NCBI GenBank assembly: GCA_039812885.1
Contig: JBDIBI010000015.1
Coordinates: 1-62,877, forward strand
Source: Blastocatellia bacterium
Lineage (GTDB): Bacteria; Acidobacteriota; Blastocatellia; Chloracidobacteriales; JADJPF01
Reading direction: 5' to 3'
Length of the DNA stretch: 62,877 nucleotides
Of this stretch, positions 1-49,529 are shown in pieces; positions within the stretch are counted from its first letter, which is position 1; each line of letters starts with the position of its first letter. Below the pieces are notes generated by a model. That model worked only from the letters and a program-made list of their open reading frames with translations. It was not told the DNA's origin and did no database searches. Made by a program: the position numbers and the translations under genes.

Positions 1-107
1 ACTACATTCTTGTCTCTTCCCTCTTCACCATTGGCATAGGAAGATACAACTGTACCCATCCAAAATAGTGCTAATGTAATTGCGATAGCTAAAGTTTTGA
101 GTTTCAC
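1..107 (-). CDS. Partial secreted protein; the N-terminus lies in the window and the gene runs off the left edge
   Basis: Minus-strand translation from GTG at 105-107 gives VKLKTLAIAITLALFWMGTVVSSYANGEEG. This is a classic signal peptide with an AxA-like cleavage site. It lies downstream of pstS on the same strand. No mature domain is visible. Confidence 0.35.
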   Translation of the reverse strand, partial: MKLKTLAIAITLALFWMGTVVSSYANGEEGRDKNV

Positions 108-256
108 TTTTTTCTCCTAAGCTAGGTTTGGCTTGGGTTATTATAATTTTGTTTTTGTAAAACCAAAATTTTCAGGAATTTTTATAACCCAGCTAAACTA
201 ACTACTTTTTTATCAATTGTTTTGTTTTACTAACAACCATTTGAGTTTATAGAGTT

Positions 257-1354
257 TTATAAAGCTAGGGCTTCGCCTTTAGCTTTTAAGCCCTTAACTT
301 TATCCTCAACTTTTTTAACTACTTCTGCTGGGAGTGGAGCATAATTAAGATCTTTAGCTAATTTTTGACCATCACTCATTGCCCATTTAATAAATTTAGC
401 CAAAGCTTCAGCTTTAGTTTTGCTGTCCATATCTTGGTAAACAAGTAGGTAGGTGTAGCTAGATATTGGATAAGCTCCATCACCTTCTGCATCGGTAATT
501 GAGGTTCTCATATCATCTGGAAGTTGAGCTACTGTGCCACTAGCTGCCGCAGTAACTGAATCTGGACTAGGAACAACAAACTTTCCAGCTTTGTTTTTTA
601 TAGAGGCAACAGGCATTTTATTTTGTACTGCATAAACTAATTCAGTATAACCAATAGCGCCTTCTACTTGTTTAACTTGACCTGTTACACCTTCGTTACC
701 TTTTCCACCTAAACCTACAGGCCAGTTTACAGAAGTACCTTTACCAACTTTATCTGCCCAAGTTTTACTAACTTTGCTTAAATAATCTACAAATACTGCT
801 GTAGTACCGCTACCATCTGAACGATGTACTACTGTAATTTCTTTATCTGGCAATTTAAGATCTTTATTATCTTCTACAATTTTAGGATCATTCCATTTCT
901 TAATATCCCCTAAGAAAATACCTGCTAGTACATCAGAAGTAAGTTTAAGTTCACCATTTACACTAGGTAAGTTATAAGTTGCTACAACAGCCCCTAAAGT
1001 AGTTGGAATATGAACTATTGGCTTTTTCAAAGTTTTTTGTTGATCATCTGTCATTGGAGCATCTGAAGCACCAAAATCTACTGTTTGCTCAGTAATTTGC
1101 TTGATACCACCACCAGATCCTATTGATTGATAGTCTATTTTAACATTTGGGTTTGCTTTGTTATATTCACTAATCCATTTAGAATAAAGAGGATAAGGAA
1201 ATGTTGCACCTGCTCCTTGTAAGGAAATTGTATCACCTTTTCCAGCATTACCACCATCTGTCTTTGTTCCAGAATCATCTGGCGCACCAGCGCAAGCTGT
1301 CCAAATTAATGAAAAAAGCATCGTTACTAAAACAAGATAAAATTTCTTTGACAT
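257..1354 (-). CDS. pstS: Phosphate ABC transporter substrate-binding protein PstS
   Basis: 365 aa with an N-terminal signal and lipoprotein-like Cys. Carries the motif GAGATFPYPLYSKWISEYNK and a TSDGSGTT-like region typical of the PstS family. Sits divergent from phoU. Confidence 0.85.
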   Translation of the reverse strand: MSKKFYLVLVTMLFSLIWTACAGAPDDSGTKTDGGNAGKGDTISLQGAGATFPYPLYSKWISEYNKANPNVKIDYQSIGSGGGIKQITEQTVDFGASDAPMTDDQQKTLKKPIVHIPTTLGAVVATYNLPSVNGELKLTSDVLAGIFLGDIKKWNDPKIVEDNKDLKLPDKEITVVHRSDGSGTTAVFVDYLSKVSKTWADKVGKGTSVNWPVGLGGKGNEGVTGQVKQVEGAIGYTELVYAVQNKMPVASIKNKAGKFVVPSPDSVTAAASGTVAQLPDDMRTSITDAEGDGAYPISSYTYLLVYQDMDSKTKAEALAKFIKWAMSDGQKLAKDLNYAPLPAEVVKKVEDKVKGLKAKGEALAL

Positions 1355-1434
1355 AAAAACCTTTCTATTTATCTACCTACTTTTATTTGAATTAAGAGTG
1401 CTTTAATTTATTTGTCTGTAGTCTAATGAATGGT

Positions 1435-1494
1435 TGTAAAGTGTCTGTTAAGCGACTGTAAAAAGTCTGTAACAGTCATGTAAAATTTATGTAA
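1435..1494. promoter_or_regulatory. Array of six phased 11-bp direct repeats with core TGTAA, a candidate PhoB/PhoP (Pho box) binding array in the pstS/phoU divergent promoter region
   Basis: TGTAA or TGTTA occurs at 1435, 1446, 1457, 1468, 1479 and 1490, an exact 11-bp periodicity equal to one helical turn. The units are gtctgttaagc, gactgtaaaaa, gtctgtaacag, tcatgtaaaat and ttatgtaaata. On the pstS strand they read TTACAG or TTACAT, resembling TT(A/T/C)ACA PhoP-type boxes. The E. coli Pho box is likewise a CTGTCAT direct repeat with 11-bp phasing. Confidence 0.5.
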
Positions 1495-1595
1495 ATAAGG
1501 GATTTACTGCTAATTTTACCTATAGAAGTACTAGCAGAAAGCTTAAAAAAAAAGTATCCTTTAGCACGTAATCATTCTACTTTTGGAGAGGTAAA

Positions 1596-2255
1596 ATGCC
1601 GTTTGAAGATGATGCACTTAATCTGCTGCGTGATAAAATTCTCCTCTTAGGTGGTGCAGCAGAAGCAGCAATTGCTAATGCGACTCAAGCTCTTTTAGAA
1701 AGAGATGCAGAGCTAGCAGAAACAGTTATTGCTGAAGATGATGAGATTGATCGGATGGAAAACGAAATTGATCAATATTGTAGTGATCTTTTAATTAATA
1801 AATTTTCTGTGAATTTAGATGCACGCTTTGTTATTTCTATCTCACGAGCGGCTCAAATAATTGAAAGAATAGCCGATCATGCAGTAAATATTGCTAAGCA
1901 TGCACTTGTATTAATTGACGAACCTAACCTTAAAACTCGGTTAGAAATAGCTAAACTAGCTGCTATTGCTCAAGAAATGCTCTTAGGTAGCTTAGATGCT
2001 CTTACTCGTTCAGATTGCCAATTAGCTTTTAACACTATTCATAAAGATGACTCAGCAGATCAGCTTTTTCATACCATTTATAACCAATTAATAGCTACAA
2101 TGGAACAAGACTCTAAAACTATAAGAAGAGCTGTCGAATTATTATTTACAATAAAACATCTAGAAAGAATTGCTGATTATGCAACTAATATTTGTGAAAT
2201 GGTAATTTATCTAGTAGAAGGTCGATTAATTAAACATACTCCAGAAGCAAAATAA
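1596..2255 (+). CDS. phoU: Phosphate signalling complex protein PhoU
   Basis: 219 aa. The duplicated PhoU-domain helices with acidic and His motifs (ERIADHAVNIAKH and ERIADYATNICE) are diagnostic of PhoU. Confidence 0.85.
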   Translation: MPFEDDALNLLRDKILLLGGAAEAAIANATQALLERDAELAETVIAEDDEIDRMENEIDQYCSDLLINKFSVNLDARFVISISRAAQIIERIADHAVNIAKHALVLIDEPNLKTRLEIAKLAAIAQEMLLGSLDALTRSDCQLAFNTIHKDDSADQLFHTIYNQLIATMEQDSKTIRRAVELLFTIKHLERIADYATNICEMVIYLVEGRLIKHTPEAK

Positions 2256-2298: not shown

Positions 2299-3009
2299 AT
2301 GCTAAATAAAAACCGTATTTTAGTTATTGAAGATGATGAAGATATAGCCAATAATATTAAGTATAATCTAGAGCGTGGTGAGCCACATGAAGTTCTAATT
2401 GCTTTAACAGGTGAAGCAGGATTAGAACTTTGTGAAGGCAATGATTATGATTTAATAATACTTGATCTTAACCTCCCTGGAATGAGTGGTTTTGAATTAT
2501 GTAGGGCACTTAGACGAAGACAACGCACTTCACATGTACCAATTTTAATGCTTTCTGCACGTAGTAGCGAAGATGATAAAGTACATGGTTTTGATCTAGG
2601 AGCAGATGACTATGTAACTAAACCTTTTAGCATGCGTGAATTAAAAGCACGGGTTACAGTTCTGCTTAAACGTCGTAGCGAACCAATTAAAGCCACACCT
2701 TTTGATGATGGGCAACTAATGGTAGATTTTGAACAAATGTCTGTTCGTTTCCGTGGTCGTCCTGTTACTCTTACCCGTAAAGAATTTCAACTCTTAAAAT
2801 TACTATTAGAAAGCCGTGGGCGCATCCTTACCAGAGAACTATTACTAGAACGTGTATGGGGGTTAGAATATTTAGGCGAATCACGAACCATTGATGTGCA
2901 TGTTTCTCGTTTACGTCAAAAGTTAGGTGGAGATGAATATATCCAAACTGTAGTTGGGCTTGGGTATCGTTTTAAAGATCCTAAACAGGTAGAAGAATTT
3001 GATGAATGA
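2299..3009 (+). CDS. phoB: OmpR/PhoB-family response regulator (receiver domain plus winged-helix DNA-binding domain)
   Basis: Receiver domain carries the phospho-acceptor region DLIILDLNLPGMSG. The C-terminus has the OmpR-family winged helix (TRKEFQLLKLL...VWG...RTIDVHVSRLRQKL). Its position between phoU and a PAS histidine kinase supports a PhoB role. Confidence 0.7.
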   Translation: MLNKNRILVIEDDEDIANNIKYNLERGEPHEVLIALTGEAGLELCEGNDYDLIILDLNLPGMSGFELCRALRRRQRTSHVPILMLSARSSEDDKVHGFDLGADDYVTKPFSMRELKARVTVLLKRRSEPIKATPFDDGQLMVDFEQMSVRFRGRPVTLTRKEFQLLKLLLESRGRILTRELLLERVWGLEYLGESRTIDVHVSRLRQKLGGDEYIQTVVGLGYRFKDPKQVEEFDE

Positions 3010-4108
3010 AAATATTCTTAGCTCTTCAAATAGTAGCAAAATCAGGGAAGAGGTAACCAATAACCCTCTACTTAGAGCTTTGCTAGATGTAGTGCGTGAA
3101 GCTGTTTTAATAGTAGATTTAGACACTAAAATTGTCTTTACCAATCGTGCTGCCCGTGAGATATTTGCTTTTCCCACTAGTGATCAACCAGGGTTGCGTT
3201 TAACAGATGTAACTCGCAACAAAGAAATTTACACTTGTTTTACTACTTGCTTAAAAGAAAAAAATCTTTTTGAAAAAAAGATACACCTTCATACTAATAG
3301 TGGTGAACGGAAATTGGATCTTAAAGTAGAATCCATTACAACTACGGATTTAAGTGGTATAGAAAAAATTATAGGTGTAGTAGGAACATTTTTTGATAAC
3401 ACAAAGTTGGAAGCATTAGAACAAATGCGTCGAGAATTTTTTGCTAACCTTTCTCACGAATTACGAACACCTCTTACATCTATTGAAACCTATGCTGAGA
3501 CTTTGCTTTCTGGTGCACTTTATGACAATGAAAACAATGTAAAGTTTGTGGAAATAATTGCTAAACATGCAGCACGAATGCGCAATCTAGCCCAAGATAT
3601 TTCAGATCTAGCCGCAATAGAATCAGGCAAAGTGGCTATGCGTCCGCAACGAATAAAGATTACTCAAACAGTTCGTGAAGTGGCAGAACTCTTAAAAGAC
3701 GCTATTAACTCTAAAAAAATCTTATTTTCTAACCAAGTTCCTGAAGATTTATATGTTTTTGTAGATGCTAAAGCCTTAGAGCAAATTCTTTTTAACCTAG
3801 TACAAAACGCAGTAAATTTTAATCAGCCTAATGGCTCCATTACTGTTACAGCTAACCCTTGCGGGGATTATCAATTAATTAAAGTAACTGATACTGGAAT
3901 TGGTATAGAAAATAAACATATTCAAAGAATCTTTGAGCGTCTCTACAGAGTTGATGAATCTCGTTCAAGAAAAGAAGGTGGAACAGGTCTTGGTCTGGCA
4001 ATTGTTAAGCATTTAGTTCAAGCTCAAGGAGGAGCAATTTTTGTAGAAAGCACTCCTAATCAAGGTAGTACGTTTTCAGTCTCACTACCAACTTTTAAGA
4101 CAAGTTAA
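2999..4108 (+). CDS. phoR: Sensor histidine kinase, PhoR-like (PAS, HisKA and HATPase_c domains)
   Basis: H-box FFANLSHELRTPLTSI, N-box QNAVNF, G-boxes DTGIGI and GGTGLGLAIVKH. The start overlaps the upstream regulator by 11 nt. The PAS-like N-terminal region appears to lack long transmembrane helices. Confidence 0.65.
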   Translation: MMNENILSSSNSSKIREEVTNNPLLRALLDVVREAVLIVDLDTKIVFTNRAAREIFAFPTSDQPGLRLTDVTRNKEIYTCFTTCLKEKNLFEKKIHLHTNSGERKLDLKVESITTTDLSGIEKIIGVVGTFFDNTKLEALEQMRREFFANLSHELRTPLTSIETYAETLLSGALYDNENNVKFVEIIAKHAARMRNLAQDISDLAAIESGKVAMRPQRIKITQTVREVAELLKDAINSKKILFSNQVPEDLYVFVDAKALEQILFNLVQNAVNFNQPNGSITVTANPCGDYQLIKVTDTGIGIENKHIQRIFERLYRVDESRSRKEGGTGLGLAIVKHLVQAQGGAIFVESTPNQGSTFSVSLPTFKTS

Positions 4109-4345: not shown

Positions 4346-5638
4346 ATGTCTACTCAATTGCCTATAGCATCGAGCAAAAAGAAGATTTTATGGCTTTCTC
4401 CTTTAATCATAATAGCTTTATTAATTCCTATAGTATTAAAAAGTGGCATTTCTTTTAATCCAAACAATATGTTTGCTAGTTTTTCCTCTTTACCTAAATT
4501 AGGTAAAACACCTCCAAAACTAGAAACTGTTACTATAGAAAAAGGAAAACTAGAAAAAACGTTTATACTAGATGGTGAACTACGTGCAGTAAGAGCAAGA
4601 TCTGTTTTTGCTTCTGGTGATAATGAAAGCAAAATCACTTATATGCCACTTGAAGGAACTAATATAAAAACTGGAGAGCGTTTAGTTGAGTTTGATAACT
4701 CCCCTGTTTCTAATAAGGTTCGTGAAGTTAAAGAGAAAATTATTTCGGCAGAAAATGAACTAGTTGAAATGAAGTCTAAGCATGAGTCTGAACTTCGTGA
4801 TTTGCAAGTAGATTTAAGCCGCTATTGGCTAGCTTATGAACAAGCTAAAATTGAGGCTAATGTTCCAGAAAATTTAATTGCTCGCCGAGATTATCAAGAA
4901 CGCCAACTTAACTTAGAAAAAGCTAAAACTGAGCATTCTAGCCATTTAGCTAAAATTGATAAGAAAAAACTAGAACAACAATCAGAATACCAAGCTAAAA
5001 ACCTAGAAAAAGAAAAACTAGAAGTAGATTTGCGTAAACTAGAAAGTCAGTTAGAGAGCCTTAATATCAAAGCTCCAACAGATGGAATTGTTATTTATGC
5101 AGATCATATTTTTGAGCCTCGCAAAGTTCAGATTGGAGATGTAGTTTGGAGTGGTTTTCCTGTAATCAATTTACCTGATTTAAGTGAATTAGAAGTTCTA
5201 TCACAAGTTAATGAAGTTGATGGACCAAAACTTTCTGTAGGCCAAAAGGCTCAAGTATCTTTAGATAGCTATCCTGATATTAAAATTAACGCCAAAATAA
5301 AAGAAATCTCTCAAACAGCAGCTAAATCCCGAACTACACGTTCAGATACCACTAAGATCTTTAAAGTAGTGTTCTCTCTAGAAAACACTTTAACAGATAT
5401 AATGAAACCCGGTATGTCCACACAAATTGTTATTAACCTAACAAATACAGAAGCACAAATACTAGTTCCCCGTTCCGCTGTAATATTTAGCAATAACCAA
5501 GCTCAAGTAACAAAGCTAGTTGGTGAACAATTACAAACATTTACAGTTAATATTTTAGATTCTGATACACATTTTTATGCAATCGCTCAAGATAACAAAT
5601 TACAACAAAGTGATAAACTTGTTATATCTCAAAACTAA
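4346..5638 (+). CDS. HlyD-family periplasmic adaptor (membrane fusion) protein, paralog 1
   Basis: N-terminal transmembrane anchor LWLSPLIIIALLIPIVL, a long coiled-coil, then a beta-barrel or lipoyl-like region (APTDGIVIY, QIGDVVWSG). Confidence 0.7.
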   Translation: MSTQLPIASSKKKILWLSPLIIIALLIPIVLKSGISFNPNNMFASFSSLPKLGKTPPKLETVTIEKGKLEKTFILDGELRAVRARSVFASGDNESKITYMPLEGTNIKTGERLVEFDNSPVSNKVREVKEKIISAENELVEMKSKHESELRDLQVDLSRYWLAYEQAKIEANVPENLIARRDYQERQLNLEKAKTEHSSHLAKIDKKKLEQQSEYQAKNLEKEKLEVDLRKLESQLESLNIKAPTDGIVIYADHIFEPRKVQIGDVVWSGFPVINLPDLSELEVLSQVNEVDGPKLSVGQKAQVSLDSYPDIKINAKIKEISQTAAKSRTTRSDTTKIFKVVFSLENTLTDIMKPGMSTQIVINLTNTEAQILVPRSAVIFSNNQAQVTKLVGEQLQTFTVNILDSDTHFYAIAQDNKLQQSDKLVISQN

Positions 5639-5641
5639 CTT

Positions 5642-6892
5642 ATGGGATTTACTATGATTAAAAAGCTTCTTAAAACCTTTTTTACTCTAGTACTTTTAGC
5701 TGCTGTTGCTATTTCAATATTTTTTCTTTCTACAAAGTTCTTTCCAATGCCTAAAGCAGTAACTAATGTAGAAGAACTTTTGATTGTTCCTAAAAAAGTT
5801 AAACTCTCGGTTGACTCAAATGGAGTGTTAAAAGCAGAGCAAGTTCAAAATTTTGGTGGCCCTCCAGCTTTTGAAAATCACTGGCAGTTTAAAATTAGCA
5901 ATATGATTGCTGAAGGCAAAGTAGTGAAAAAAGATGATTTATTGCTTTATTTTGAAGCTCAAGGAACATTTGAAGAACTTCAACAAGCACAAAACGAACT
6001 AGATCAAGCTAAAAAACAAGAAGAAAAAATGAAGGTTCAAATAGCTTTAGAAGAAGAAGGTCTTAAAGCTAAAGTAGCTGAAGCTCAACACAAATATGAA
6101 AGTGCAAAGCTAAAACAACAAACTAATGCTGAATTAGCAACTTCAAATACCATAGAAAAAGACCGCTTAGCCGTTGAGCAAGCTCGCCAAGAACTTGCTG
6201 CTTTAGAGGAAAAACTACTTTGGTATAAAAAATCTAGTGAAGCTAGTTACAACATAGTGGTAAGCCGTAAAGCTCGCGCTGAAAACAAAGTAAATAAAGT
6301 CCAAGCAGGCATGGCTCAGCTACAAATCAAAGCAGATCGTGAAGGTGTAGTAGTTTATAAAACCCGTTGGAATGGGGAAAAATTTCAGCTTGGAGAAAAT
6401 GTTTGGTCTGGTCAACCAATTATGGAAATTCCGGACTTAAAAACTATTTTTGCTCAAGCTTATGTTCCAGAAGTTGATATAGGTAAAATTAAGGTAGGAC
6501 AACCTGTAGACGTTAACATTGACGCTTTACCAGGACAAACTTACACAGGAAAAGTAAAGTCTATTGGTAGGCTGATTCATTCTAAATCTTGGGATATTCC
6601 TAACAAAGTTTTGGATGTTGAAATTGCACTAGACAATATTGACAGTGTTGTTATGCGTCCTGCAATGAGCTTAAAAGCCAAATTTGAAACGGCTAGTTTA
6701 GATAACGCTATTGCTATACCTCTTAGTGCAGTGCAAGTTGGAGCTATTGGGAATTTGGTAAAAATAAAAACTCCCAATGGTTGGCAAGAAAAACAAGTAA
6801 AACTAGGTGAATATACTGGCACAGATGTAATTGTTAATGAAGGACTTAGTGCTGGTGATAAAATTGCTAGTGACTTTACTAAAGCAAAATAA
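5642..6892 (+). CDS. HlyD-family periplasmic adaptor protein, paralog 2
   Basis: Transmembrane anchor FFTLVLLAAVAISIFFL, coiled-coil (QELAALEEKL) and a C-terminal barrel (KVGQPVDVNIDALPGQTYTGKV). The more likely start is the ATG near 5654. Confidence 0.7.
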   Translation: MGFTMIKKLLKTFFTLVLLAAVAISIFFLSTKFFPMPKAVTNVEELLIVPKKVKLSVDSNGVLKAEQVQNFGGPPAFENHWQFKISNMIAEGKVVKKDDLLLYFEAQGTFEELQQAQNELDQAKKQEEKMKVQIALEEEGLKAKVAEAQHKYESAKLKQQTNAELATSNTIEKDRLAVEQARQELAALEEKLLWYKKSSEASYNIVVSRKARAENKVNKVQAGMAQLQIKADREGVVVYKTRWNGEKFQLGENVWSGQPIMEIPDLKTIFAQAYVPEVDIGKIKVGQPVDVNIDALPGQTYTGKVKSIGRLIHSKSWDIPNKVLDVEIALDNIDSVVMRPAMSLKAKFETASLDNAIAIPLSAVQVGAIGNLVKIKTPNGWQEKQVKLGEYTGTDVIVNEGLSAGDKIASDFTKAK

Positions 6893-6894
6893 TT

Positions 6895-8169
6895 ATGCAA
6901 ATAATAAAAAAAATTCTTTCTATCATCTTTGTTGTTCTACTCTTATCAATAGGTGCTGTAGCAGGATTTAGAAAAGTTCAAGAATTTCTAGTCCCTGCTA
7001 AAACTCTGTATGTTCCACTTACTCTACAACTTACACCTCAAGATTTTGCAGTTAAAATTCAAGCTCCTGGAGAACTCCAATCCTCAGAAACCACTAAATT
7101 AGTTGTACCTAATGTCCCAGCAGAAAACCTTCGTATTGCAACAGTTGCAGCCGATGGGAGCTATGTTAACAAAGGCGATCTGTTAGTAGAATTTGACCCT
7201 ACACAATTAAACTTACAATTTCTAGAACAAAAATCTAATTTAGAAATAGCAAATCACAAAATAAGCAAAAGTGAATTGGCTGCCGAAGTAGATAGGTCTG
7301 ACTTAGTCAAAGAAAAAAAAGTTAGTCAGTTAGAGCTAGATAATATCTCACAATTTCAGCCAAAAGATGAGCTTATTTACTCTAAACGTCAAATTCTAGA
7401 AGGAGAATTAAACAAAGATTATACTGAGAAAAAAATTCTTCTAGCTAATGCTCGTCTAGAATTAAAAGGCAAAGTTTATTCATTAGATGAAGCTATTTTG
7501 CTTTTAGAACAACAACAAGCCAATGCCAAAATTAACCAAGCAGAAAAGGCTCTTTCTTCACTTAAGCTCACTTCTCCAACAGCTGGAATTGTTGATTATA
7601 AAGACCGTTATAGTGGTTTTTGGGCAATAATGCCAGGCCGCAATGTTTACCCTGGTATGGCCTTATTTGACCTGATAAACCCTAACAAAATGGAAGCTAA
7701 GTGTTATGTTTTAGAAAAAGATGCTGGACAACTAAAAATTGACCAAAAAGTTATAGTTACACTAGATCCTTTCCCAGGAAAAGAATTTACTGGAAAAGTG
7801 AAAAATATTGATAATCTTGCCCGCCCCATTGACCGTGATTCTCCTGTAAAGTATTTCCAAACTGTTATTTCATTAGATACTAATGAACCTGCGTTGATGA
7901 AACCAGGTATTAAACTCAAAGCTAATATTCAAGCAGAAGAAATAAAACAAGCTTTAGTTGTTCCTAGAAGTGCCTTACTAGAAAAAGATGGTAAGTATTT
8001 TGCTTATGTTCAAGTAGGAACTCAATTTGAAACTAAGCCTGTTACGCTTGGACAAGGTGATTTAATTCAAGTAGTTATAACCGAAGGTCTAAAATCAGGT
8101 CAAACTATTGCATTAAATCCACCTAATGCTAAACAAAGTTTTTCACAAAAAGATCCTAATAAAAAATAG
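6895..8169 (+). CDS. HlyD-family periplasmic adaptor protein, paralog 3
   Basis: Transmembrane anchor ILSIIFVVLLLSIGAVAG, coiled-coil, SPTAGIVDY and FPGKEFTGKVKNI. Same architecture as the two preceding genes. Confidence 0.7.
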   Translation: MQIIKKILSIIFVVLLLSIGAVAGFRKVQEFLVPAKTLYVPLTLQLTPQDFAVKIQAPGELQSSETTKLVVPNVPAENLRIATVAADGSYVNKGDLLVEFDPTQLNLQFLEQKSNLEIANHKISKSELAAEVDRSDLVKEKKVSQLELDNISQFQPKDELIYSKRQILEGELNKDYTEKKILLANARLELKGKVYSLDEAILLLEQQQANAKINQAEKALSSLKLTSPTAGIVDYKDRYSGFWAIMPGRNVYPGMALFDLINPNKMEAKCYVLEKDAGQLKIDQKVIVTLDPFPGKEFTGKVKNIDNLARPIDRDSPVKYFQTVISLDTNEPALMKPGIKLKANIQAEEIKQALVVPRSALLEKDGKYFAYVQVGTQFETKPVTLGQGDLIQVVITEGLKSGQTIALNPPNAKQSFSQKDPNKK

Positions 8170-8212
8170 AAGTTAATTTAACTAACTCTAAACTTAAGTT
8201 GGGTTTACATAA

Positions 8213-9451
8213 ATGGCATATTTATCAGACTTAAAATTAGCAATAGGAAATCTTCAAACCCATAAATTACGCACTTTTCTAACTATGTTAGGCATGATTT
8301 TTGGAGTTGGGGCTGTAATAGCAATGCTTTCCATTGGTGCAGGTGCAGAACAAGAAAGCTTACGTATTATTGACACTATGGGAGTGCGTAATATTATAGT
8401 AAAGGATAAAGAGTTTAAGGACGAAGATTTAAAGAAAATCAGAGAAACATCTCTAGGTTTATCACTAAGAGATGTTCAAGCAATTCAATCTGTAACTCCA
8501 CAATTAGAAACCTATTCAGCTAAAAAGAAGGTTAAAACTTTTCAAATATTTTCTTTTTCTGGGAAAGCAGATGATTCAAATGTTCTTGGTGTAAGCCCTA
8601 CGTATTTTAGATTAGCTAAATATAATTTATTAGAGGGGGGCTTTTTTTCTGAAATAGATGAGAAAAACTATGAACAATTTTGTGTAATAGGTTCAAGAGT
8701 TAGGCAAAAGCTTTTTAACAAAGTTTCCCCTATAGGTAAACAAATTAAAATCAATAAGTTATGGTTTACAGTTATTGGAGTTTTAACCGATAATAATTTA
8801 GGCAAAGATGAATTTGAAGGTGTTAAACTACAAGACTTTAGCAATGATATTTATATTCCTATCACAACAGCACTTAAGAAATTTGATCTTAAGCGTCTAG
8901 AATCTGAACTAGATGAGCTTATTTTAAGTGTTAAAACAACAGATACACTTAAGGCAAGTGCTGTGCTTATCAATCAAGTAATAGTTAATACTCATAACAA
9001 AGCTGAAGATTTTTCCATAGTGCTTCCTCGTGAGTTATTAGAACAAAATCAAAAAACCCAAAACATTTTTAACATTGTAATGAGTTGTATTGCTGGCATT
9101 GCGCTTTTAGTAGGTGGTATAGGAATCATGAATATTATGCTAGCAAATATTCTAGAACGAACTCGTGAAATAGGCATTCGCCGAGCTATTGGAGCACGTA
9201 GGCGAGATATAATGCTGCAATTTCTTATGGAAGCTCTGACAATAAGCTTATCTGGTGGAATTTTAGGTATAGTCTTTGGCTTTGGAGCATCTCGTTTAGT
9301 AGCTATTTATGCTGATTGGACAACAGTTGTAACTAGCACTTCAATTATTATGTCTTTTGGTGTATCAGCTAGTGTAGGGTTGATTTTTGGAATTTACCCA
9401 GCTATTACAGCATCCCGTTTAAACCCAATAGATGCACTACGTTATGAATAG
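8213..9451 (+). CDS. ABC-transporter permease of the MacB/FtsX family (MacB-like periplasmic domain plus FtsX 4-TM domain), with no ATPase domain
   Basis: N-terminal transmembrane helix LRTFLTMLGMIFGVGAVIAML, a periplasmic domain of about 200 aa, then a C-terminal FtsX domain (IGIRRAIGARRRDIMLQFLMEAL). There is no Walker A or B motif in this ORF or adjacent to it. Confidence 0.75.
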   Translation: MAYLSDLKLAIGNLQTHKLRTFLTMLGMIFGVGAVIAMLSIGAGAEQESLRIIDTMGVRNIIVKDKEFKDEDLKKIRETSLGLSLRDVQAIQSVTPQLETYSAKKKVKTFQIFSFSGKADDSNVLGVSPTYFRLAKYNLLEGGFFSEIDEKNYEQFCVIGSRVRQKLFNKVSPIGKQIKINKLWFTVIGVLTDNNLGKDEFEGVKLQDFSNDIYIPITTALKKFDLKRLESELDELILSVKTTDTLKASAVLINQVIVNTHNKAEDFSIVLPRELLEQNQKTQNIFNIVMSCIAGIALLVGGIGIMNIMLANILERTREIGIRRAIGARRRDIMLQFLMEALTISLSGGILGIVFGFGASRLVAIYADWTTVVTSTSIIMSFGVSASVGLIFGIYPAITASRLNPIDALRYE

Positions 9452-27856: not shown

Positions 27857-30800
27857 ATGAGCAATAATATGATGGATCCAATAATTGGGCGCGCATTAGG
27901 GGATTTTCTAGTTAAGGAAAAGCTAGGAGAAGGTGGATTTGGAGCTGTTTATAAAGCAAGTCAAATTACTTTAGACCGTGAAGCTGTAGTTAAAATTCTT
28001 CATACTCGCCATCGTACTGACATAAACATAATAGAACGTTTTAAGCGAGAAGCCCGTCTAGCTTCGCGTTTAGAACATCCATATTGTGCTCATATTTATT
28101 CATTTGGAGCTGAAGAGGATGGATTATTATGGATTGCGATGGAATTAGTTGATGGAACTCCATTAAATGAAATAGTTAAATCCCAAGGCCCATTACCATT
28201 AGAACGCTTTATCCCTTTGTTAGATAAAATTTGTGAAGTTGTTCATACTGCACATGAAACAGGCATAGTTCATCGAGATATTAAACCTGCTAATGTTATG
28301 GTTATTTCTAGAGCTGGACGACTTTTACCTAAACTCCTAGATTTTGGTATTGCTAAGGATCTATCCCTTCAAAATGGCTCATTTGATAAAACTAGTGAAC
28401 TATCTACAGATAAATTACCTGATTTAATAAATGAATTTGATAGCTTAAAAAACACCCTTAGAAAAAACTCTTTGCAACTTGCTGAATCCAAACATCCAAC
28501 ATTATTTGTTAATACTTTGTTAGCTAAAGAAACTGATGAACAAAACCTTGACCTAGCTACAAATAAAATTACTCATCTTGTAAAAACACATGGAATAATG
28601 GGCTCACCTAGCTATATGGCTCCTGAACAGTGGAAAAATGCTGTTACAGCAGATGCTCGTAGTGATATTTATGCCTTAGGAGTTACTGCATATGAACTGC
28701 TTACGGGTAAATTGCCTTTCAAAGGCTCTATGAATACATTGATGAATGCACATCTTAACAAGCCTATTCCAACTTTAGCTACAACATTTGCAGAAAAGTT
28801 TGATCCAATAATTGCTAAAGCTATGGCTAAAAATGCTGAAGATCGCTATCAAACAGCTTTAGAGTTTGCTAAAGATTTCCGTGAAGCAGCTAATTTTACT
28901 CAAGAACAAATAATCCTACCTCATCTAGATGAAATACTTAAAGAAAATTTATTAACCAATGCCCCAAAACCTTTAGCTGATATGGTTGCAAGCCTTGTAG
29001 CGGCTCGCAATGCTTATCAATTTAGAGATAGATTATTTTTGGTGTTGCATGTTTTAATACGGTACATAAGCATATTAACCCTAGCAAGCTATGCAAGTAC
29101 TATTACAAATGAGCAAACTTCTGAGTTAATTACTAAAACAATAGCTAATTTACGTCATAATAGTTTAACTGATTTAGAATGGTTAGAACTTTCGAGAGAA
29201 CTATGCAGACCTTTTGCTAAAAAAAGAGATGCTTTTCCTATCCCAGAACTAATAACTGTATTTTTTGCAATAGATAGTGAACATCTTAACTTTCTAAATG
29301 AAACATTTCTTAAGCTCTTGCAAATGCAAGATGAAATAAATTCCAATGCTTCACTAAAAGAAGAGCAGCTAGTAACTTTACTGGCTCATTTCTTAACTAA
29401 ACTTACTTATTTATTAAAAGCTACAGCTTGGTTAAGTGATTATTACTTAGTACTTCCAGAAGCCAATAGAGCAACTAAATGGATGGGAATAGCTAAAGAG
29501 ATAAGTTCAATAAGTTTAAAAACCAGCAATATAACTAACCAAAAGGCTATTTTGGTAGATGCACAAGGGCATTTTGTCTTAACACTTTGGCCATTAATAG
29601 AAATAGTTGAACCTACCCCAGGAATGTCATTAGAAGTTTTTCTACTAGAGCGCAAAGGTCGTAATTCAGCAAAATTAGTTTCATTTCCTGATGGATTTGA
29701 AATAGAAACTGAAGCTCCTTGGGACTGGTTAAAACAACACTTTATTACAGATGAAGAAAAGGCAAAAACAGCAAAGCTGATAGAAAAATCTCCATATCTA
29801 GGTTTAGCTACCTTTTCAGCAAAAGACTCAAATTTGTTTTTTGGGCGAGAAAAAGAAACAGAAAACTTTCTAAATCGTTTGCGTATTCAACCATTACTTG
29901 CAGTTGTAGGGCCATCAGGAGCAGGAAAAAGTTCTTTTATTCAAGCTGGTGTTGTGGCTGGGCTTGATGAGAATTGGCAAGTTATAACAGTTCGCCCTGG
30001 ACTTTCCCCTATTGCTACATTAGCTAGCAAACTTTCAAAAGTAGGTATTGAGCTAGTAGATTTAAAAATTAAATTACAAAAAGATATAAATTTCCTAGGT
30101 AATAGCTTACGTCAATTTGCTAGTGAGCAAAATAGTCAAATCTTATTAATAATAGATCAATTTGAAGAAATCCTAACACTCTGTTTAGACAAGCAGGAAC
30201 AACAACTCTATGTAGAAGCAATAGTTTTAGCCGCACGCTCTGAAGAAGATCCTATTAGAGTTGTACTAACAATGAGAGATGATTTTTTGGTAAAAGCTAA
30301 AAAGCTAAAAGCTCTAAAAGATCGTCTTAACCAAGCATTAGAAATACTCACAACTCCAGCATCTACAGAACTTATTAAAATCCTTACAGAACCAGCTAGA
30401 CAAGCAGGCTATGAGTTTGAAGATCAAGAACTTCCTGTAGAAATTGTAAATGAAGTTACAGAACAAACTAGTGCCTTACCATTACTAGCATTTACAGCAG
30501 CAAAACTTTGGCAACAACGAGACAAAGAGTTTAAGCAACTCAGGCGCAGAAGTTATGAAGCAATGGGAGGTGTAGGAGGTGCATTAGCACGTCATGCTGA
30601 AAGTATGTTGTTGCAAATGACTCATATAGAACAATCTCTTGTTCGTGAAGCATTTCGTCATTTGGTCACAAGTGAAGGAACAAGAGCCGTTCTAACTCGT
30701 CCAGAGATATTGCAATTGTTAGGCAAAAGTGGCGAAAGTGAAGCTGTATTAGAAAAATTAATTTCCGCTAGGCTTCTAGTTGCAACTGAAGGAGAAAAAG

Positions 30801-47427: not shown

Positions 47428-47582
47428 TAAACTTAGCTATTAGGTTTGTTTGAATTAATTTATAAGATATGTTAGTGAAGTGTTAAGTGAAAATTAATTA
47501 ATAATTCGTTATTTTTTAACAGCATCACTAATTTTTTATGTATGCTAAACTTAAACTTTAAGCTTTTTAGAGCAATAAAAAT

Positions 47583-49529
47583 GTGACTTTCGGAGGTAAG
47601 CAAGCATTGAACTCCACAGTAAAACAACTTCTCCTATGGGGATTTATTTTCGGCGGTGCCATTTTTCTTTGGGTTTGTTTTAAAGGTAACACAGGAGTAA
47701 GAACAGATAATCTTTCTTTTACTCAGTTATCTGAAAAAATAACAAAAGGTGAAATCAAAGAAGCAACTTTTGATGAAAATTCCTTAGAAGGCGAATATAA
47801 AAATAATGATAAAGCTAGATTTAAAATGGATCTTCATAACCAAGAAGTCCAAAGAGATCTAGTTAAACAAATGCAAGAAAAAGGTGTGGATGTAAAATTT
47901 AAATCATCCGCTAGTAGTGCTTGGGTAGGAACACTACTACTTTATTCTCCACTACTACTAATTGCTTGTCTATGGATTTTTATGATGAGACAAATGCAAT
48001 CTGGCGGAAACAAAGCGCTTTCCTTTGGTAAAAGCCGCGCCAAGTTGCTTTCTAATCAAAACAAACGTGTAACATTTAAAGATGTAGCTGGCGTAGAAGA
48101 AGCCAAAGAAGAGCTACAAGAAATTATTGAATTTTTGAAAGAACCTCAAAAGTTTCAAAAACTTGGTGGCCGTATACCCAAAGGCGTTTTAATGATGGGA
48201 CCTCCAGGAACAGGTAAAACTTTGCTTGCTCGTGCTATTGCTGGGGAAGCTAATGTGCCCTTCTTTTCTATTTCAGGTTCAGATTTTGTAGAAATGTTTG
48301 TTGGTGTAGGTGCTTCTAGAGTTCGTGACCTTTTTGAACAAGGTAAAAGAAATGCTCCTTGTATAATTTTCATTGATGAAATTGATGCTGTTGGTCGTCA
48401 TCGTGGAGCAGGCTTAGGTGGCGGACATGATGAAAGAGAACAAACTCTTAATCAACTCTTAGTTGAAATGGATGGTTTTGAATCTAATGATGGAGTGATC
48501 TTAATTGCTTCTACTAACCGTCCTGATGTGCTAGATCCTGCATTACTACGCCCAGGCCGATTTGATCGCCGAGTTGTAGTTAATAGACCTGATGTCAAAG
48601 GCCGTGATGGTATTTTAGCTGTTCACACTAGAAAAATTCCTCTAGGTGATGATGTTGATATTTCAGTAATTGCCCGCGGAACTCCAGGATTTACAGGTGC
48701 AGACCTTGCTAATCTAGTCAATGAAGCCGCTCTTAATGCTGCTCGTTATAATCGAAAAGTAGTTGCAATGTCAGACTTTGAAGCTGCTAAAGATAAGGTT
48801 TTAATGGGTAGTGAACGCCGTTCAATTGTCATTAGCAATGAAGAAAAACGAAATACTGCTTACCATGAAGCTGGTCACGCTTTAGTAGGAATTAAAGTAC
48901 CTAATGCTGATCCAGTACATAAAGTTACTATTATTCCTCGTGGTATGGCATTAGGCTTAACTCAACAGCTTCCAGAAGCAGACCGCTATACCCATACTAG
49001 AGAATATATCCAAGGACAAATTGCTATCTTAATGGGTGGTCGTCTTGCTGAAGAAATATTCCTTAATCACAATACCACAGGTGCTTCCAATGACATTGAA
49101 AGAGCCACAGAATTAGCACGTAAAATGGTTTGTGAATTTGGTATGTCAGAACTCGGGCCACTTACCTTTGGTAAGAAAGAAGAACAAATTTTCTTAGGCA
49201 GAGATATTTCTAGACACCAAGACTATAGTGAAGAAACAGCAATAAAAATTGATCAAGAAGTTAAACGTATTATTCTTGAACAATACACTCGTGCTAAACA
49301 AATTATTGTAGAAAATAAAGAAGCATTAGTTCGTTTAGCAGAAGCGCTTCTAGAACATGAATCTCTAGATGCTATTCAAATCCGTAGAGTTATCGCAGGA
49401 TTACCTTTAGATGATTCTACTAGTAGCTCAAGTTCTGCTAAAGATGATAAGCCTCAAGGAGAACAAAAACCTTCTGTGTTAAAACCAATAATTTCTCCTA
49501 TTGCTGGTGATAATCCTGCTACGGCTTAA
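47583..49529 (+). CDS. ftsH: ATP-dependent zinc metalloprotease FtsH
   Basis: Walker A GPPGTGKT, Walker [12 protein letters not shown], and the zinc motif HEAGHAL. The ORF-track start at 47583 is GTG. A TTG at 47607 preceded by GGAGG may be the true start. Confidence 0.9.

Follow-up and report, generated by a model that had tools for sequence, protein, structure and literature searches.

The genes pstS and phoU of an uncultured Blastocatellia bacterium, an acidobacterium, are read away from each other from a common intergenic region in which the word TGTAA recurs at strictly regular intervals. The locus raises the question of whether these repeats are an operator of the phosphate (Pho) regulon, which protein would bind them, and whether they would serve one or both of the flanking operons. 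The whole stretch of DNA analysed here, referred to as the window, is 62,877 bp long and has a G+C content of 34%. The first-pass annotation had proposed that the repeats are binding sites of a PhoB/PhoP-family regulator, controlling both the transporter gene and the operon of the regulator itself. The genes surrounding the repeats are the following:

1-113, minus strand: gene downstream of pstS, of which only the 5' end is present, as the window ends inside it; it starts with a signal peptide.
257-1354, minus strand: pstS, phosphate-binding protein of the Pst transporter (TIGR00975, 411 bits, cut-off 205), first gene of the leftward operon.
1596-2255, plus strand: phoU (TIGR02135, 170 bits, cut-off 130), first gene of the rightward operon.
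2299-3009, plus strand: OmpR-family response regulator of the PhoB/PhoP/RegX3 type, with PhoB families as best matches, below cut-off.
2999-4108, plus strand: PhoR-type histidine kinase (PAS-HisKA-HATPase), matching best the PnpS/PhoR models, below cut-off.

The repeats are thus located in the promoter region of core genes of the Pho regulon, pstS and the regulator operon. Orthologous loci were gathered by exact-protein look-up and one scan of genome contigs with a PhoU alignment, and the PhoU homologues found carry Blastocatellia or Acidobacteriota labels. Several loci (L010, L011, L024, L027, L037 and others) are Blastocatellia-like by PhoU similarity and gene order, yet titled 'uncultured Clostridia bacterium', which looks like a labelling artefact.

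In the nearest relatives (L064, L067, L069 and L012) the leftward operon consists of pstS, a Porin_5 porin, pstC, pstA, pstB and a second phoU. The homologue located between pstS and pstC in L064 (2-1282) matches Porin_5 with 92 bits, and the window's gene at 1-113 probably encodes an outer-membrane porin of the same type, followed by pstC-pstA-pstB-phoU2. Between this gene and pstS lie 143 bp of spacer (114-256). The clade has two PhoU paralogues, one heading phoU-phoB-phoR and the other, about 50% identical (L006 1214-1873, minus strand), ending the pst operon. In L210 the array separates two divergent phoU genes, the second of which is a solitary gene. Downstream of phoR, three consecutive genes for HlyD-type membrane-fusion proteins and a MacB/FtsX permease gene are found both in the window (4346-9451, plus strand) and in L006 (8705-12660; 83% PhoU identity), and no Pho-box-like site was detected upstream of these genes.

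The repeats themselves form a single feature:

1434-1499, plus strand: six-unit array of 11-nt direct repeats, read directly from the sequence.

Re-reading of the plus strand reproduced the earlier description exactly, with TGTAA or TGTTA words at 11-bp steps (1435, 1446, 1457, 1468, 1479 and 1490) in an intergenic region (1355-1595) of the 241 bp previously given. Only the word at 1446 is TGTTA, the other five being TGTAA. Written in register, the units are tTGTAAAgtgt, cTGTTAAgcga, cTGTAAAaagt, cTGTAACagtc, aTGTAAAattt and aTGTAAAtaag, while the minus (pstS) strand reads as the hexamers TTTACA, TTAACA, TTTACA, GTTACA, TTTACA and TTTACA with spacers of 5 nt.

The array is unique in the window. 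When both strands were scanned for phased TGT[AT]A words at periods of 8-14, the array scored six out of six, and nowhere else were even three of six words found. The pair TGTWA-N6-TGTWA occurs seven times in the window, five of them within the array, compared with 1.9 +/- 1.6 in dinucleotide shuffles, none of 100 shuffles reaching seven; two-copy matches at 28507 and 47470 do not exceed chance level. The latter, TGTTAGTGAAGTGTTA (47470-47485, plus strand), is intergenic and lies upstream of a 648-aa ORF at 47583, with only two units, a low matrix score and an occurrence within chance. A matrix scan of the rest of the window (about 62 kb) revealed no second site above chance, the best two-unit score outside the array being 12.0 against a null maximum of 14-17. 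The suspicion that the motif might be just as frequent elsewhere, which would have spoken against a regulatory role, is therefore not borne out within the window by either the phased-word scan or the matrix scan. A generic promoter scan gave no plus-strand site and one chance-level minus-strand site inside the array, and a search of positions 1200-1750 against Rfam detected no RNA family.

The array recurs in related genomes. Among related Blastocatellia loci it occupies the pstS-phoU intergenic region in the same register and orientation, as seen in L010, L011, L012, L009, L013 and L014, so that the orthologous promoters keep the repeats, as a regulatory role had been predicted to require. 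Six units are present in L010 (identical to L006), L011 and L012, with PhoU identities of 79-83%, and four in L009, L013, L014 and L210, with PhoU identities of 62-71%; L209 has three units, and L015 and L042 two to three. The six-unit arrays resemble four-unit arrays with 22 bp, that is two units, inserted. Over 36 units from seven loci the unit consensus is (C/t/a)TGTAA(A/C)nnnn, in which the core T, G, T and A-A are near-invariant and the last four positions carry no more than 0.3 bit. The units run head-to-tail, positions 2-7 being conserved and positions 8-11 variable, and such near-invariant cores with free spacers are the pattern expected of protein-binding sites.

Cross-locus comparison identified the best-conserved part of the array:

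1478-1499, plus strand: units 5 and 6, ATGTAAAATTTATGTAAATAAG, the best-conserved pair.

In most of the compared loci, including L209 and L210 (62% PhoU identity), the phoU-proximal pair reads TGTAAAAT(T/C)T(A/C)TGTAAA. Deviations are limited to a first unit starting with CGTAA in L010 and L011, one unit ending with C in L011 and L014, and a different spacer (TGTAAAATCAATGTAAA) in L015. Judging from this conservation, units 5-6 are likely the high-affinity core where binding starts.

Association with phosphate genes, suggested earlier as a check, is supported by 609 kb of the relatives' loci, where two-unit scores of at least 15 were found only upstream of a phoU or pstS ORF or at a locus cut edge where the pstS start is expected. 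Sites reaching this score just upstream of a pstS ORF were those of L021, L043 and L071.

These comparisons bear on two explanations that involve no regulator. According to the first, the array would be a selectively neutral microsatellite with an 11-bp period, or would have arisen by chance. Satellites of this kind do exist: metagenome contigs were scanned for four TGTWA words at 11-bp steps, which gave at least 120 stretches, and most of the matches listed, none of which is from this clade, are plain satellites. However, in the window Tandem Repeats Finder detects the array only as a weak 2.7-copy stretch with 75% matches, indicating conserved cores with diverged spacers and not a recent tandem duplication. 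Moreover, across genomes down to 62% PhoU identity the spacers differ while the cores are kept, and the position of the array is fixed relative to two -10-like hexamers, described below. This cross-genome pattern effectively refutes the microsatellite or chance reading, whose probability we consider negligible.

The second is a protein-independent structure, in which phased A-tracts would produce intrinsic curvature and act as an UP-like element for both promoters. Runs of AAA or AAAA do occur in most units, spaced by about one helical turn, and the region is AT-rich. However, conservation falls on TGTAA, with its G and its TGT, and not on the A-runs, the seventh position being A or C and the spacers drifting; GC-richer relatives keep TGTAAC or TGTTAC with no A-tracts at all. 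Since it is TGTAA that is conserved, and since the GC-richer relatives do without A-tracts, intrinsic curvature is a very improbable explanation.

The design of the units is that of known Pho boxes. The PHO box is composed of two 11-nt direct repeat units, each with seven conserved and four less conserved bases, with the core CTGTCAT in E. coli (PMC4415409). The array shares with E. coli the 11-nt units of about seven conserved and about four variable bases, the core TGTnA, the orientation toward phoU, and an A/T-rich spacer in the best pair (TGTAAAATTTATGTAAA here, CTGTCATAAAACTGTCAT in E. coli). It differs in having A in the core where E. coli has C, and in units that point the opposite way with respect to pstS. 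A literature search for Pho boxes of Acidobacteria gave no paper that describes one.

The protein binding the array is presumed to be the regulator encoded at 2299-3009, the gene of which, both in the window and in relatives, is in an operon with a PhoR-type kinase gene and linked to pst/phoU. Against TIGR02154 (PhoB) this protein scores 215 bits, below the cut-off of 296, and still the PhoB models are the top two of 99 families. Its closest solved structure is RegX3, the mycobacterial phosphate regulator (E 1e-51), and one source database lists the protein as PhoP. The DNA-binding domain resembles several other OmpR-family members at least as closely as it does E. coli PhoB; the protein shows 37% identity to E. 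coli PhoB, and the comparison of recognition-helix residues between the two is a lead only.

The PhoR-type kinase has 369 aa (351-381 aa in relatives) with no apparent N-terminal membrane segment, and its reading frame, with a TTG start codon, shares 11 nt with the end of the regulator gene. With a soluble PhoR, phosphate sensing would go wholly through PhoU/Pst or an intracellular ligand.

An alternative is that the repeats are bound not by the adjacent PhoB-type protein but by a different protein, be it a winged-helix or OmpR-family regulator or a nucleoid protein. Direct repeats of TGTnA spaced by 10-11 bp are used by several OmpR-family regulators, the protein at 2299-3009 falls short of the PhoB family cut-off, and many of the listed metagenome arrays with variable spacers do not adjoin phosphate genes. 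On the other hand, every relative examined has the array together with phoU-phoB-phoR and/or pstS, and in the 609 kb of relatives' loci it was found upstream of no recognised non-Pho gene. Binding by some other protein thus appears improbable, with only a small chance left to it.

The metagenome contigs provide a broader view of this association. Among the matches listed, tblastn found pst/pho neighbours at six of the 43 arrays with variable spacers and at none of the 77 repeat-like arrays (Fisher p = 0.0017). Two further sampled arrays, in L176 and L153, precede genes of PHO4-family phosphate transporters, and both orientations of the array relative to the downstream gene occur among the listed matches. 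As no array among the matches listed comes from the window's clade, the scan backs only the general link of the array design to phosphate genes; the design is a widespread form of Pho operator and not peculiar to the window.

Two further groups of metagenome arrays were observed. Spacer-variable TGTTA arrays are located 26-68 bp upstream of genes of about 935 aa in L131 (7389-7426), L143 (3220-3257) and L167 (8062-8099), in the Bacillus-like orientation. The L131 product is a TonB-dependent receptor with CarboxypepD_reg according to Pfam, those of L143 and L167 being judged SusC-like from their N-termini only, and all three may be Pho-controlled outer-membrane uptake genes. A related array, TGTAATATTTTTGTAACATAAATGTAAT(A/T)TAA, recurs in AT-rich contigs of 26-31% G+C (L102, L113, L119, L147, L157, L162, L170 and L196); near these arrays tblastn detected no pst/pho genes, and Pfam returned nothing for one neighbour (in L147).

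The putative promoters on either side of the array can now be considered. On the pstS side one element is needed:

1420-1425, minus strand: candidate pstS -10, TAGACT, 9 nt downstream of the proximal hexamer TTTACA (1440-1435).

A TAnnnT hexamer is present exactly 9 nt past the proximal hexamer in all eight loci with a leftward Pho gene (TAGACT, TAAGCT in three loci, TATTTT, TAGCCT, TAAAAT and TAGGTT), while at any other offset no more than three of these loci have one; in both loci with no leftward Pho gene the hexamer is absent at the 9-nt offset. By sequence, therefore, the pstS side has the fixed geometry to a candidate -10 with which a Pho box takes the place of the -35 element. The pstS start site is predicted near 1413, which would place units 1-6 at roughly -21 to -86 of the candidate promoter. 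The core binding region of Bacillus PhoP extends from -20 to -60. The pstS-proximal unit, at about -22 to -31 and upstream of the TAnnnT -10, would take the place of the -35 element, and the array would switch on pstS-porin-pstCAB-phoU2.

The sequence TGTCTGTAG is located at 1413-1419 (plus strand), where it keeps the phase of the array at 22 bp to the left of unit 1, although no unit occupies the intervening position 1424. It overlaps the predicted pstS start site and could be a weak extra site or a chance occurrence.

Read in this direction, the array is of the Bacillus type. [quoted passage not shown] 1999 as cited in PMC11870197, and two to eight PhoP boxes can be functional (PMC11870197). 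The likeness to this consensus pointed out in the first-pass annotation holds, as five of the six pstS-strand hexamers fit TT(A/T/C)ACA exactly and the sixth is GTTACA; the pstS coding strand thus has more than the minimum of four such hexamers at 11-bp periodicity. Other shared features are the even number of boxes and the way the array abuts the candidate -10 in place of a -35 element. The pstS site of Lacticaseibacillus, tttacaN5tttacaN..tttaca (PMC11870197), is nearly identical in look to the window's array. Unlike the Bacillus sites, the array belongs to an acidobacterium, has six units instead of four, and faces a second, divergent operon.

For that second operon the relevant elements are:

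1505-1510, plus strand: degenerate hexamer TACTGC, 9 nt past the last unit.
1530-1537, plus strand: ACTAGC(A/C)G element, ACTAGCAG, conserved, in the -35 region of the candidate phoU promoter.
1555-1560, plus strand: candidate phoU-phoB-phoR -10, TATCCT, conserved in 10/10 loci.

In E. coli the box is located 10 bp upstream of the -10 (PMC1906773). Unlike this arrangement, no usable -10 lies 10 bp past the last unit on the phoU side of the window; TACTGC was considered as an E. coli-type -10 at this position and rejected, lacking the final T. Another candidate phoU -10 element, TGnTAATTT, occurs in the window and L010 and was rejected as it is not conserved in L011, L012 and L009.

By contrast with these candidates, a hexamer TAT(C/T/G)(C/T)T is present in all ten loci, and conservation is what points to TATCCT as the putative -10. 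TATCCT has an A-run and a weak -35-like TAGCAG/CTAGCA upstream, and the phoU start site is predicted near 1567. The distance of the hexamer from the last unit is 59 nt in the window, and the ten loci have 39, 48, 48, 48, 49, 50, 59, 59, 59 and 60 nt. Spacings grouped at 39, 48-50 and 59-60 nt suggest that helical phase is kept. The corresponding Rayleigh R is 0.91 at a 10.5-bp period, with Monte Carlo p = 0.0014 for seven collapsed, mutually related lineages, a result that is only suggestive since the lineages are related and the independent indels few, essentially two jumps of about 10 bp. As the sole conserved -10-like hexamer is 59 nt downstream, autoregulation, if real, acts from a distance.

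The ACTAGC(A/C)G element is found in the window, L010, L011 and L012, the last of which has a 10-bp deletion between the element and the array. Together with this element, a nine-A run followed by GTATCCTTTA (1538-1563, plus strand) is conserved at 62-83% PhoU identity; the run and GTATCCTTTA are read here as promoter spacer and -10, and could be another regulatory element.

The long distance on the phoU side gives rise to the most serious competing reading within the Pho interpretation, namely that the array is a PhoB operator for pstS only, phoU-phoB-phoR having its own constitutive promoter at TATCCT. In the window 59 nt separate the last unit from the candidate phoU -10, which is far from the classical position of a box beside the -10, and not all bacteria autoregulate the operon of the regulator (PMC1906773). 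However, in L209 three units are kept upstream of phoU-phoB-phoR with no pstS nearby, suggesting that the array also serves phoU-phoB-phoR; the spacing to the TATCCT hexamer shifts only in steps of about 10 bp; and in Streptomyces a single operator activates both divergent Pho genes (PMC2275107). The L209 locus and the 10-bp ladder of spacings argue against control of pstS only, without settling the matter, and we regard such control as unlikely.

Action from this distance has a mechanistic analogue outside the Pho regulon. At ompF and ompC, OmpR occupies three tandem dimer sites from about -100 to -40. As is proposed for the window, there are six monomer sites at about one helical turn, filled hierarchically and activating from upstream; the regulator, signal and motif are different, and the analogy extends only to action from -60 to -130.

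For control in both directions the nearest precedent is the phoU-phoRP region of Streptomyces coelicolor, where one four-unit operator activates both divergent genes (PMC2275107). Complex (class III) operators of Streptomyces have up to six units, a conserved core pair from which weaker extension units are filled cooperatively (PMC2275107). The window's array is similar in its 11-nt units in a divergent region, lying on the coding strand of just one of the two divergent genes, and in a number of units that in Streptomyces also reaches six. The differences are that the Streptomyces unit is GTTCACC, that the gene pair there is phoU/phoRP as opposed to the pstS operon and phoU-phoB-phoR here, and that the Streptomyces operator has been footprinted experimentally whereas the window's array is a prediction from sequence.

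Taken together, the array is best read as a multi-dimer Pho operator common to two divergent promoters, and as a further instance of an already known arrangement. It is very probably the binding array of the adjacent PhoB/PhoP-type regulator, activating pstS. Less assured is autoregulation of phoU-phoB-phoR by the same array, acting from upstream and locked in phase, the balance being slightly in favour. Under phosphate limitation, the soluble PhoR kinase, presumably controlled via PhoU and Pst, would phosphorylate the regulator, and the phosphorylated protein, encoded 800 bp away, would occupy the array with as many as six monomers, or three dimers, arranged head to tail. Binding would probably begin at units 5-6 and spread along one face of the helix, and from what is known of the family the three dimers would be expected to bind cooperatively. 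From its position about 59 nt upstream of the weak TATCCT promoter, on a conserved helical face, the array would most likely boost phoU-phoB-phoR from a distance, providing positive autoregulation.

The relatives also suggest how the divergent arrangement may have arisen. Higher-GC Blastocatellia have a single one-direction pstSCAB-phoU-phoB-phoR operon, with TGT(A/T)A(A/C) units pointing toward pstS, so that the pst genes lie on the opposite side of the array from where they are in the window's clade. In L021, L071 and L043 the last unit, TGTAAC (CGTAAC in L043), is followed after exactly 10 nt by TATAAT or TATACT, and these pstS promoters have the layout given for E. coli in PMC1906773. Much like the four-unit arrays of L013 and L014, the array of L071 reads TGTTAA, TATTAA, TGTTAC, TGTAAC, and it shares with them TATTAA in second place. 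The spacer around TACTGC (GCNTTTAT) looks alike in the higher-GC relatives and the window's clade, and the hexamer 9 nt past the last unit is TACTGC in the window and TATTGT or TATCGC in relatives. It may be speculated that TACTGC is the decayed -10 of an ancestral promoter of E. coli type (box, 10 nt, -10). Inversion or relocation of pstSCAB, with a new -10 then recruited on the far side of the array, is a plausible course of events that we infer from these comparisons only.

Combined with the promoter geometries described above, this leads to a tentative proposal, which we regard as possible but rather doubtful. One head-to-tail PhoB filament would activate two divergent promoters by two geometries, abutting the -10 in the 'reverse' (Bacillus-like) orientation at pstS, and acting at phoU from 40-60 nt upstream of the -10 on a locked helical face, the pst operon having been flipped across an ancestral E. 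coli-type box/-10 promoter within Blastocatellia. If this is true, activation by this PhoB would be independent of site orientation.

The array is otherwise a standard regulatory site involving no new principle. What it provides for Blastocatellia and low-GC Acidobacteriota is a working model of the Pho box, (C)TGTAA(A/C) repeated with an 11-bp phase. The phylum is abundant in soil and groundwater and mostly uncultured, and the model could allow the phosphate-starvation regulon to be predicted directly from metagenome-assembled genomes. In addition, the relatives form a comparative series in which the number of units ranges from 4 to 6, the pst operon lies on either side of the array, and spacer lengths differ by steps of about 10 bp. 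They thus represent a natural experiment on whether PhoB-type activators need a given site orientation and helical phase.
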